In this document: positions 38,842 through 40,637 of the stretch, piece after piece
Layout of the letters: every line of letters begins with the position of its first letter
Numbering within the stretch: the stretch's first letter is position 1
Source: a phage
Strand: one strand, 5' to 3'
Sequence record: PZ452594.1
Length of the DNA stretch: 64,000 bases
The notes under the pieces: generated by a model
The model's database searches: none
What the model was told of the DNA's origin: nothing
The model's input: only the letters and a program-made list of their open reading frames with translations
Program-made: the position numbers and the translations under genes

Positions 38842-38860
<19 letters not shown>

Positions 38861-39330
38861 TCAGTGATAAAGTTATTTAAATTTTGAGCGTATTTCTTTT
38901 CATCAAAAATCTTTTGCTGTCTGCGTAAACGCCATGGCATTTCAATGAATATGCACCATATTCCTGATAATATTGCTGCTGTAAAAATATTAACAAGTAT
39001 GGTTAAAAGAATCCAATCTCCTATTCTGTCCATTGGATTTTTTATAAAAAAGTAAAATACGAATGATGTCACAGGAAGACTAATAATATACCACAGAATC
39101 ATAATTTTATCTGTGAACCAATCAGCGTTCGTTAACTTAGCACGACCATTATGAATACACACGAATTTATCATCTGTTATAATAGATGGCTTAGCTGCTT
39201 GATATCCCATTCTAAACTCCCTAATCAACAAATTTTTCATATCTTCGGAACAACCATTCCAGTCAACTCTATCAACTGAAATGCCATCATCCCCATCATC
39301 TAAATCATACCAGCGAGTTTTTAAAATCAT
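38842..39330 (-). CDS. membrane protein (162 aa); junction-motif family member
   Basis: 2 TM helices; C-terminus [11 protein letters not shown]. Confidence 0.45.
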
Positions 39331-39689
39331 TTAATTTTCCTACAATCACTCACAAACTCTTCCATTGATTCTTTTTCAATATAAGACATGTAGCTATTAT
39401 ATTCCTTTAATTGTATTTTGTAATCCTTTTTTCTTTGCCAATTTATTTTAAAATTATCATAATGAAAATATAACACTGTACCAAAGAATGAAAATAATGA
39501 AATAATTTTAGTATAGTGAAGTTCACTCCAAACTTCTATTATATTTACTGTGCCGTCAATGTTTAAAATAAGACAGTCAATTAACAATCCAAAAAGACTA
39601 CCCGCAAGAGCTGCAGCCAACGCTACAGCAAAAATTAAAAATGACTCAGGAAGAGAATATTTGACTTTATTTAGTTTTGGCTTTTGCAT
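39327..39689 (-). CDS. membrane protein (120 aa); junction-motif family member
   Basis: TM helices; C-terminus EEFVSDCRKIK. Confidence 0.45.
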   Translation of the reverse strand: MQKPKLNKVKYSLPESFLIFAVALAAALAGSLFGLLIDCLILNIDGTVNIIEVWSELHYTKIISLFSFFGTVLYFHYDNFKINWQRKKDYKIQLKEYNSYMSYIEKESMEEFVSDCRKIK

Positions 39690-40063
39690 CGTGATTCCTT
39701 AACAAATTTCATAATTTCATCAAATTCATGCGCAGCAAGTTTAAGCTGATGTTCCTTTTTAATCTTTTTACACTGAGCTTTCCAATCACGTACACGTTTA
39801 CGATAGTGTCTTCCTTGATACCAATATCCTATCCAATTTATAGGTACTAATAAAAGCGGAACTACCAATGGAAGAATTAGTGTTGCTCCAAATATTGCAC
39901 CAGATTCAATATCAGTCATAACGTCTATAACTATTCCAGCAATCAACAGAATCACAAATGATACGGCTACCACAGGACCTATTAACACATCAGTAGAAAT
40001 TATCTGACGCTTTAATTCATACTTTAAGGGTTTACTTGGAAGATACATTGATGGCTTTGACAT
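39671..40063 (-). CDS. membrane protein (130 aa); junction-motif family member
   Basis: TM helices; C-terminus MKFVKESRCKSQN. Confidence 0.45.
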   Translation of the reverse strand: MSKPSMYLPSKPLKYELKRQIISTDVLIGPVVAVSFVILLIAGIVIDVMTDIESGAIFGATLILPLVVPLLLVPINWIGYWYQGRHYRKRVRDWKAQCKKIKKEHQLKLAAHEFDEIMKFVKESRCKSQN

Positions 40064-40637
40064 ATTCTCTGCATTCCTTCACAAATTTTTCTAATAATAA
40101 ATCGCTTTCAAAATTGGGATTTTCTACGAATTTATCAAAAAGATCATCGACAATAGTTAAGATATTCTTTTTACTAAGAATACGTTTATTTTCATGCTTC
40201 GTTTCAGAATCAACTATAAGAGTAAAGAAATATTTCTTGCCCTGAAATTTTACAGTAGTATCAATATAGAATAAATTTGACTTTTGTAAATTACGTTTAA
40301 ACCATGCATCACTTAAACTATAAACGCCAAGATAATCATAATCGTCGTTTAAATAACAGACCGTCCATTCAGGAGAAACAAAATCAGTAAATTCAACATC
40401 AAAATCACATGTTAATGAATGAATTGATTCAATACTGTTAATAAGTATTCCAGGACGTATTAAAGACTTTTTACCTTTATAAAATCCAGAAAGACTTTCA
40501 TCAGTTTCATATGAAGAACCCCAATAATAATTACGTCCTTCTGCCATACGTTTAAGAGCATTTAATAATTGGTCTGGAACATCAACCTGTCTTTGGAACT
40601 CTTCAAACATTGAATTGAAATCACTTTGCATTTTCAT
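40032..40637 (-). CDS. hypothetical protein (201 aa); junction-motif family member
   Basis: C-terminus EKFVKECREYVKAIN overlaps next gene start. Confidence 0.45.
   Translation of the reverse strand: MKMQSDFNSMFEEFQRQVDVPDQLLNALKRMAEGRNYYWGSSYETDESLSGFYKGKKSLIRPGILINSIESIHSLTCDFDVEFTDFVSPEWTVCYLNDDYDYLGVYSLSDAWFKRNLQKSNLFYIDTTVKFQGKKYFFTLIVDSETKHENKRILSKKNILTIVDDLFDKFVENPNFESDLLLEKFVKECREYVKAINVSSK

Follow-up and report, generated by a model that had tools for sequence, protein, structure and literature searches.

Why do four consecutive genes of a T4-type phage end in the same short peptide, and why does each of them overlap the start of the next gene? The question is raised by a locus on the minus strand of phage sequence record PZ452594.1, of which a stretch of 64,000 nucleotides (the 64-kb window, hereafter the window) was analysed. 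Tequatrovirus genomes match the window at 97-99% identity, Shigella phage ESh31 being the top match, and the four minus-strand open reading frames (ORFs) correspond to T4 genes e.5, e.4, e.3 and e.2, with e.6 upstream and nudE (e.1), the lysozyme gene e and denV downstream. Each of the four ends in [L/I]-x-x-F-[I/V]-x-[E/D]-[C/S]-R, which we call the tag. An earlier note on this DNA had reported the coordinates of the four ORFs, their C-termini and the overlap of each gene with the next start, and all three descriptions held. The C-termini read ...EKFVKECREYVKAINVSSK for e.5, ...MKFVKESRCKSQN for e.4 and ...EEFVSDCRKIK for e.3, with e.2 ending likewise, and the overlaps amount to 32 nucleotides (nt) for e.5/e.4, 19 nt for e.4/e.3 and 4 nt (ATGA) for both e.3/e.2 and e.2/nudE. 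The genes and tags are listed here with their transmembrane (TM) segments and Shine-Dalgarno (SD) sequences.

40032-40637, minus strand: e.5 (201 residues), predicted soluble alpha/beta protein with the tag on its terminal helix (residues 180-199)
40068-40094, minus strand: e.5 tag, L-E-K-F-V-K-E-C-R; AAGGAA in the Lys-Glu codons is SD-like for e.4, whose ATG (40063) lies 4 nt past the Arg codon
39671-40063, minus strand: e.4 (130 residues), predicted two-TM hairpin protein (TM 31-49 and 57-75), the second TM segment leading into a cytoplasmic helix of about 45 residues that ends in the tag
39689-39715, minus strand: e.4 tag, I-M-K-F-V-K-E-S-R; AAGGAA is the putative SD, and the e.3 ATG begins on the final base of the Arg codon (CGATG)
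39327-39689, minus strand: e.3 (120 residues), small membrane protein and probable e.4 paralog
39339-39365, minus strand: e.3 tag, M-E-E-F-V-S-D-C-R, then AGGAAAATTAAATGA; putative SD in the Arg-Lys codons, ATGA stop/start overlap with e.2
38842-39330, minus strand: e.2 (162 residues), with a soluble N-terminal part of about 75 residues, predicted TM segments 78-96 and 111-129, and the tag
38854-38880, minus strand: e.2 tag, L-N-N-F-I-T-E-C-R, then AGGAAATTAAAATGA; putative SD and ATGA overlap with nudE, with TGCAGGAAA in common with the T4 e.3 junction

The core F[VI]x[ED][CS]R has five matches in the six-frame translation of the window, and four of the five are the C-termini of the consecutive genes e.5 to e.2. 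In the complete T4 genome (166.8 kb), the C-terminal motif was found in the coding frames of e.2-e.5 only, and codon-shuffled T4 genomes contained a mean of 0.15 core matches. On the basis of these counts, a chance origin of the shared C-termini is excluded. The possibility of a genome-wide tag was also rejected, as the motif is absent from the remainder of the T4 genome. When the nucleotide sequence of the locus was compared with itself, a check that the earlier note had proposed, the only repeats were 16-31 nt long and lay at the junctions (families D3, D4 and D20), with no longer periodic repeat beyond them.

We then compared the locus with that of 29 further contigs and genomes. Twenty-seven tails sharing less than 60% mutual identity, taken from soluble e.5-type, two-TM, e.2-type and soluble 95- to 130-residue bodies, gave the consensus [L/I]-x-x-F-[I/V]-K-E-C-R, with hydrophobic residues at positions -3, 0, +1 and +4, that is, on one face of two helical turns. 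By the structure models, the tag makes up the final two turns of a terminal alpha-helix; it has a basic cap, and its hydrophobic residues lie along one face. A broader form, [L/I]-x-x-F-[I/V]-x-[E/x]-[C or small hydrophobic]-[R/K], takes in the remaining variation; the Glu at position 4 of the tag is variable (Y, Q, H, D, N, S and M occur), and the distance from tag to stop codon ranges from 0 to 28 residues (28 in RB43), with 0-3 residues in many genes.

Every orthologue in the 29 contigs and genomes has retained the tag, down to 17-30% identity. Within Straboviridae, the tag extends over at least nine genera and at least five unrelated protein bodies, soluble as well as membrane-bound, and up to five genes per locus carry it in the more distant contigs. 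The tails of HX01 (Mosigvirus) read ..EQFIMECREY.., ..MEFVKEIRC.. and ..ENFIKECRNE, those of SP18 (Gaprivervirus) ..NRFIAECREY.., ..EEFIKEVRNGTA and ..ETFIKECKS, and a Dhakavirus e.2 orthologue with 29% identity has kept ..LNSFIEECRK. Among eight lineages of the e.5 family at 17-20% identity, the only invariant columns are M1, N97 and the F, C and R of the tag. A profile search of 1.84 billion representative proteins returned 26 e.5-family matches, and all 19 of the full-length remote members retrieved end in h-x-x-F-[VI]-x-x-C-R. The codons of the tag vary synonymously at every position (TTT or TTC for F, TGT or TGC for C, and all six codons for R), and the tag persists where the downstream gene does not overlap and lies 38-82 nt away. 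The RNA of the four junctions was predicted to fold no more stably than shuffled sequences (z = -1.2 to +1.75). Taken together, the invariance in diverged orthologues, the synonymous variation, the persistence far from the next start and the lack of structure in the junction RNAs show that selection maintains the tag for its amino acid sequence and not as an element of RNA or DNA.

Further tagged soluble proteins of 95-130 residues, ending in ..LFIAKCRAK, ..SFIRMCRK.. and ..AFIKQCRR.., were seen in the region between e.6 and the lysozyme gene in other genera, at the positions given below. One of these proteins lies between nudE and the lysozyme gene, without an overlapping downstream gene.

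Contig L020, 7345-7653: tagged small soluble protein
Contig L028, 5825-6220 and 7201-8253: tagged small soluble proteins
Contig L013, 7348-7647: tagged small soluble protein

Part of the question concerns the position of the tag over the next start. At the four junctions, AAGGAA or AGGAAA precedes each ATG by 5-11 nt. Measured from the Arg codon of the tag, the next ATG lies between -1 and 82 nt away, depending on the junction. Where the ATG lies within 4 nt, the Lys-Glu codons read AAGGAA or AAGGAG; at 7-10 nt, Arg is encoded by AGG or AGA followed by purines; and at 14 nt or more, Arg is mostly CGT or CGC (12 of 19 junction types), with a separate SD downstream. Lys is AAG in 10 of the 12 junction types with an ATG within 4 nt but in none of the 11 others (p = 7e-5; background 22%), and Arg is AGR in 65% of near junctions, against a background of 24%. 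The SD and start of the next gene are written into the tag, or just after it, by synonymous codon choice, and the overlapped block from e.5 to nudE is probably coupled in translation, although coupling through the unmasking of structure is unlikely, since the junction RNAs are unstructured. The earlier note had considered a junction element conserved for translational coupling. The embedded SD and start bear this out in part, and coupling is plausible, but it is the peptide that is conserved and not the RNA, given the synonymous codons, the switch in Arg codons, the 38- to 82-nt gaps and the unstructured RNAs. The junction element is a real secondary layer, not the reason for the amino acid conservation.

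The junctions also coincide with the ends of gene losses. Contig L005 lacks exactly e.2, the e.3 tail running to the shared TGCAGGAAA and continuing as the e.2/nudE junction. The same contiguous e.2-loss junction is present in at least 37 phage records listed, including PST, PP01, RB32 and RB33, and e.2 is detected in about 50 fewer Tequatrovirus records than e.4, a difference consistent with the records of this deletion junction. The e.4 gene has been lost in L012 and in L009/L010 with two different crossover points within the shared GAGGTTC..AATG; these are two independent events. In contig L007 (6083-6200), e.3 is a pseudogene that is internally deleted but has kept its tail, SD and ATG. 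Since tag, SD and ATG are repeated at successive junctions, recombination between short homologies deletes whole genes and regenerates a working junction, so that these junctions are natural breakpoints for whole-gene loss and the array behaves as a set of exchangeable cassettes. Rearrangement is not confined to the junctions: in UFV11, e.4 and e.2 are fused in frame into an e.4::e.2 chimera, the join lying inside the genes, at a 7-nt microhomology where TM1 begins. In laboratory T4 (strain 147, L001 3234-3721; also X57093), a frameshift splits e.2, intact with 162 residues in the window and in most relatives, into ORFs of 102 and 63 residues, and the tag-bearing tail survives as the 63-residue ORF. 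In L005 (5136-5751), e.5 is split into two ORFs. This split and the e.3 pseudogene of L007 are further evidence of decay in the array, with which some lineages can dispense.

The bodies to which the tag is attached are of several kinds. The earlier note had described three of the four proteins as two-helix membrane proteins. The description is largely right: by hydropathy it applies to e.4 and e.2, each with two strong TM segments, while e.3 has one strong and one weaker segment and e.5 has none. The AlphaFold2 model of e.4 is a TM hairpin (TM1, 24-48) in which TM2 runs as one helix to residue 129, and the tag caps this continuous helix (54-129; best pLDDT 77-84), the last part of which forms a stalk of about 45 residues. 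The model of e.5 has an alpha/beta body with the tag on terminal helix 180-199.

We also asked how far the four proteins are related outside the tag. Profile-profile comparison aligned e.3 with e.4 across 41-43 columns of the cytoplasmic tail, at a probability of 83-87% (E = 4e-6 to 9e-6). They have a common MxKP N-terminus and the same architecture, a protein of another contig (L017_6202) matches both, and with the tag removed the MxKP N-terminus alone remains (P = 9e-4). The two are probably true paralogs. Between e.2 and e.3 nothing but the last 14 residues could be aligned, and between e.5 and e.3 nothing but the last 17; profile comparison detected no homology of e.2 or e.5 to e.3/e.4 beyond the tag, e.2 having merely the same architecture. 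The proposal of a tandemly duplicated membrane-protein family can therefore be kept for e.3 and e.4, on the strength of the profile match, but not for e.2 and e.5, which share only those last 14-17 residues and of which e.5 is a predicted soluble alpha/beta protein. A profile search with the two-TM family gave mostly close T4-type proteins among the matches listed, and a single-sequence search with e.3 gave only relatives with at least 67% identity. The natural alleles of e.4 and e.3 are hypervariable in the TM hairpin and periplasmic loop (39839-39973 in e.4, 39459-39635 in e.3), with a column entropy of 0.6-1.0, and nearly invariant in the cytoplasmic tails, the e.4 entropy being lowest in the tail. 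A hypervariable loop with an invariant tail is the pattern expected for proteins facing a variable external target.

Several NCBI records (P0002, P0005, P0115 and others) name e.3 or e.4 homologues "sulfurtransferase". A rhodanese/sulfurtransferase identity of e.3/e.4, based on a reading of "CRK", was rejected, since there is no Pfam or NCBIfam rhodanese match and the e.4 model is a TM hairpin followed by a helix. The name looks like a propagated misannotation.

Existing catalogues assign e.2-e.5 to families that record no shared C-terminal tag. PHROGs places the four genes in four separate families (2607, 2604, 2330 and 2203), and precomputed Pfam matches are PF26873 for close e.4 homologues and PF26876 for close e.5 homologues. 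Our own searches found nothing significant for the four genes in NCBIfam or in a copy of Pfam that lacks PF26873 and PF26876. No description of the motif or of a function of e.2-e.5 was found in the searchable full-text literature, from which most subscription T4 papers are missing.

If the tag is selected as a peptide on several unrelated bodies, the question becomes what it might bind. The strongest candidate is the product of the gene upstream.

40679-41272, minus strand: e.6, conserved 197-residue protein directly upstream of the tagged genes, with no family or structure match

Phage records with an e.6 gene number 1,107. The neighbourhood of e.6 was examined in about 25 lineages, and in all of them the gene directly downstream of e.6 (the second in RB43) is tagged, even when its body is unrecognisable, as in phiAS4 (289 residues, ..MFVDYCRR..), RB43 (240 residues, ..KFIHSCKK..) and phiP4-3 (..EYIMQCRKKL). 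Tagged genes follow e.6 in Tequatro-, Mosig-, Gapriver-, Karam-, Tulane-, Pseudoteven- and Bragavirus and in Klebsiella-phage-like contigs, and the pattern is also seen beside the two most divergent members of the e.5 family. RB49 is without e.6, without e.2-e.5 and without a canonical tag. The e.6 protein itself gave no Pfam match, no PDB sequence match better than E = 0.5, and in NCBIfam only a weak match to sll1863 (E = 0.05). The idea of e.6 as a PspA/IM30/Vipp1-like protein with e.2-e.4 as PspB/C-like partners was rejected at the sequence level, since no Pfam PspA_IM30 match was obtained at E <= 1.

We favour the explanation, to which we give a probability of about 0.6, that the tag is a docking or assembly helix. 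Under selection as a peptide, it would bring diverse co-expressed products to one common partner, for which e.6 is our best guess and the tagged proteins themselves or a host protein are less likely candidates. The variable N-terminal, transmembrane and periplasmic parts would supply the specific activities. The tag also carries the ribosome-binding site of the next gene, and the repeated junctions, acting as breakpoints, permit gain and loss of whole genes. Several points weigh against this explanation. Within the e.4 lineage the Cys has given way to S, I, V, M or A, so that the tag is not chemically uniform. The contrast in Arg codons between near and far junctions is by itself not significant (p = 0.08), and the codon-distance statistics count junction types, which are phylogenetically non-independent. 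Both AlphaFold2 models are of modest confidence (pLDDT 63 and 71). The link between e.6 and the tag consists of synteny and of one genome in which both are absent, a weak control. Knock-down of e.2-e.6 gave no phenotype in the laboratory host, and these genes are listed as unknown and "Not Fit" (PMC11879866, CRISPRi-ART supplement), an outcome that also fits accessory functions of the host-range type. Finally, common descent together with the capture of tails by fusion could account for part of the sharing.

This last possibility, taken to its end, is that the tag is a relic: the membrane proteins duplicated, the soluble proteins acquired the tail by in-frame deletion, and no common function exists today. 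The restriction of the motif to the locus and the probable paralogy of e.3 and e.4 agree with such a history, and the in-frame chimera and the junction-to-junction deletions show that fusions of this kind occur. If the tail had no function, however, it would not still be the best-conserved stretch in families whose members share only 17-30% identity elsewhere, nor would it have the lowest entropy among e.4 alleles. Descent may account for how the tag arose but not for why it has been kept, and we consider the relic unlikely as a full account. Far less weight falls to an RNA-level element, in which SD, spacer, start and possibly structure were selected for coupling and the shared residues were a by-product. 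The next SD and ATG do lie inside the motif or no more than about 10 nt from it at the majority of junctions, different genera have kept overlaps of 4-32 nt, and no strong internal consensus promoter is present. But an SD explains only 4-6 nt, and its position shifts from Lys-Glu to Arg-Lys to downstream while F, I/V, C and R stay fixed. Synonymous sites vary, with Arg usually CGT or CGC when the start is distant, and the motif is retained even where the next start is 38-82 nt away or where, as in RB43, 28 residues separate it from the stop. The junction RNAs are no more structured than shuffles. As primary cause, an RNA-level element is largely refuted.

Selection could instead have acted on the DNA, the junction serving as a recombination linker for cassette shuffling in the manner of PeSL elements. 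The e.2 and e.4 deletions, which crossed over exactly in shared junction sequences and regenerated working junctions, are what such a linker would produce. Yet the nucleotides of the motif are not conserved between genera and the peptide is, the crossovers used only 7-10 nt of identity, the UFV11 event took place within the TM region, and no promoter or stem-loop is present at the junctions. Selection for evolvability is also weak next to selection that acts directly on a peptide, and we judge a linker of this kind highly improbable. Scarcely credible, finally, is a role for the tag as a nascent peptide inside the ribosome tunnel, in pausing or termination, or as a capsid-targeting sequence (CTS) or signal for the gp21 protease of the I-x-E type. 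The tag does lie 0-3 residues from the stop codon in many genes, and N-termini of the CTS type occur in the window. The F-I-x-E of the tag resembles the I/L-x-E consensus of the prohead protease and the FIAE of the CTS of internal proteins. The distance from tag to stop varies from 0 to 28 residues, however, and there is therefore no fixed tunnel geometry. The Glu at position 4 is not conserved, and the genes, of which three encode membrane proteins, are preceded by an early-type promoter.

The docking-helix explanation can be carried further, and here we are tentative, holding the extended version to be less probable than not. In such a "tag-and-dock" system, e.6 would be a scaffold that recruits changing effector modules through one C-terminal helix, some of the modules being membrane hairpins whose periplasmic loops are hypervariable and others small soluble proteins. 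New or foreign genes would join by junction recombination, which would confer the docking tag, a ribosome-binding site and a reading-frame join at once. If true, this would be the coding counterpart of PeSL shuffling and the cytoplasmic or membrane counterpart of the CTS, and its role would probably lie in host takeover, exclusion or counter-defence.

The signals around the array, all on the minus strand, complete the description of the locus.

41317-41345, minus strand: early-type sigma-70 promoter-like site, TTTACA-17-TATAAT (11/12), upstream of e.6, from a consensus scan alone
40658-40673, minus strand: GGGGC-UUCG-GCCCC tetraloop hairpin in the 41-nt e.6/e.5 gap, without a T run and not a terminator by the scan rule
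38405-38845, minus strand: nudE (e.1), Nudix hydrolase, final gene of the tightly overlapped block, probable start 38845

The transcript from e.6 to nudE probably starts at the promoter-like site. Within the e.5-nudE block, promoter matches reached at most 10/12, against 11/12 upstream of e.6, and the scan found no terminator. The hairpin in the e.6/e.5 gap is likely an RNA stability or processing element and not a terminator. The start of nudE is likely the ATG of the ATGA overlap at 38845 (146 residues, MKTLSAG...), not the first ATG at 38860: AGGAAA lies 5 nt upstream of 38845, and this start agrees with the old X57093 annotation of a 146-residue ORF. Many records give nudE as 151 residues from the first ATG, which lies within the tag codons of e.2.

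A second tandem family, of proteins of 65-105 residues encoded about 10 nt apart, was observed downstream of the tagged genes in other contigs. These proteins end in G-x-W-[VI]-[SA]-S-S-x-x-C (GAWVSSSALC, GGWIASSHTC, QGWVSSSYSC), with up to five copies per phage, and the family is absent from the locus in T4-type genomes.

Contig L002, 3230-4024: second tandem family
Contig L003, 3191-4459: second tandem family
Contigs L013, L016, L017, L028 and L031: second tandem family

T4 is one of the most thoroughly studied viruses, and for its genes e.2-e.6, which have no assigned function, the tag offers a first concrete handle. From it one would expect several accessory proteins of unrelated kinds to meet at one partner, for which e.6 is the candidate. 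One stretch of DNA holds three layers, a selected peptide, the ribosome-binding site of the next gene set by codon choice, and a recombination breakpoint, and shows how whole genes can come and go in the hyperplastic regions of T4-like genomes while the operon stays intact. Annotation gains a corrected nudE start and a flag on the spurious name "sulfurtransferase".

The window also contains ORFs with N-termini of the CTS type, MKTY[QA][EQ]F[IL]..., whose bodies are otherwise dissimilar.

36914-37387, minus strand: CTS-type ORF
42309-42770, minus strand: CTS-type ORF
46108-46341, minus strand: CTS-type ORF

The second of these is flanked by terminator-like hairpins on the minus strand (42278-42301 and 42814-42837), each with a 10-bp stem and a T run, and the stems, AGCTCCAACC..GGTTGGAGCT and AGCCCCGACC..GGTTGGGGCT, are alike.

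Of the systems known from these phages, the CTS is comparable to the tag in its principle. In the T-even internal proteins IPI, IPII and IPIII and their polymorphic relatives, a terminal peptide of about 10 residues is the sole shared part and directs the proteins to a common assembly (PMC3012670). Both are short tags common to otherwise unrelated, polymorphic accessory proteins of T-even phages. The CTS, however, is N-terminal, is removed by the prohead protease and targets the scaffolding core, whereas the tag described here is C-terminal, lies behind an early-type promoter, has no conserved cleavage consensus and has a candidate partner only; it is not an N-terminal MKTYQEFIAE-type peptide with I/L-x-E cleavage. 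In their behaviour in recombination, the junctions are closer to PeSL, short repeats at the boundaries of nonessential genes that serve as recombination points for inserting, deleting or replacing genes (PMC2839356; PMC4122927), and the e.2 and e.4 deletions likewise crossed over within repeated junction sequences. But PeSL are intergenic regulatory DNA, with a strong sigma-70-like promoter and a terminator stem-loop, and no strong promoter or hairpin was found at any of the four junctions; the repeats here are coding, composed of peptide tag, SD and ATG, and are conserved at the level of amino acids. With translational coupling in general, the locus has in common the ATGA and 19- to 32-nt overlaps, the SD within the upstream ORF and the bias toward SD-like codons. 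Coupling accounts for 4-6 nt per junction, however, and not for a 9-residue peptide that is maintained across genera and in genes that do not overlap.

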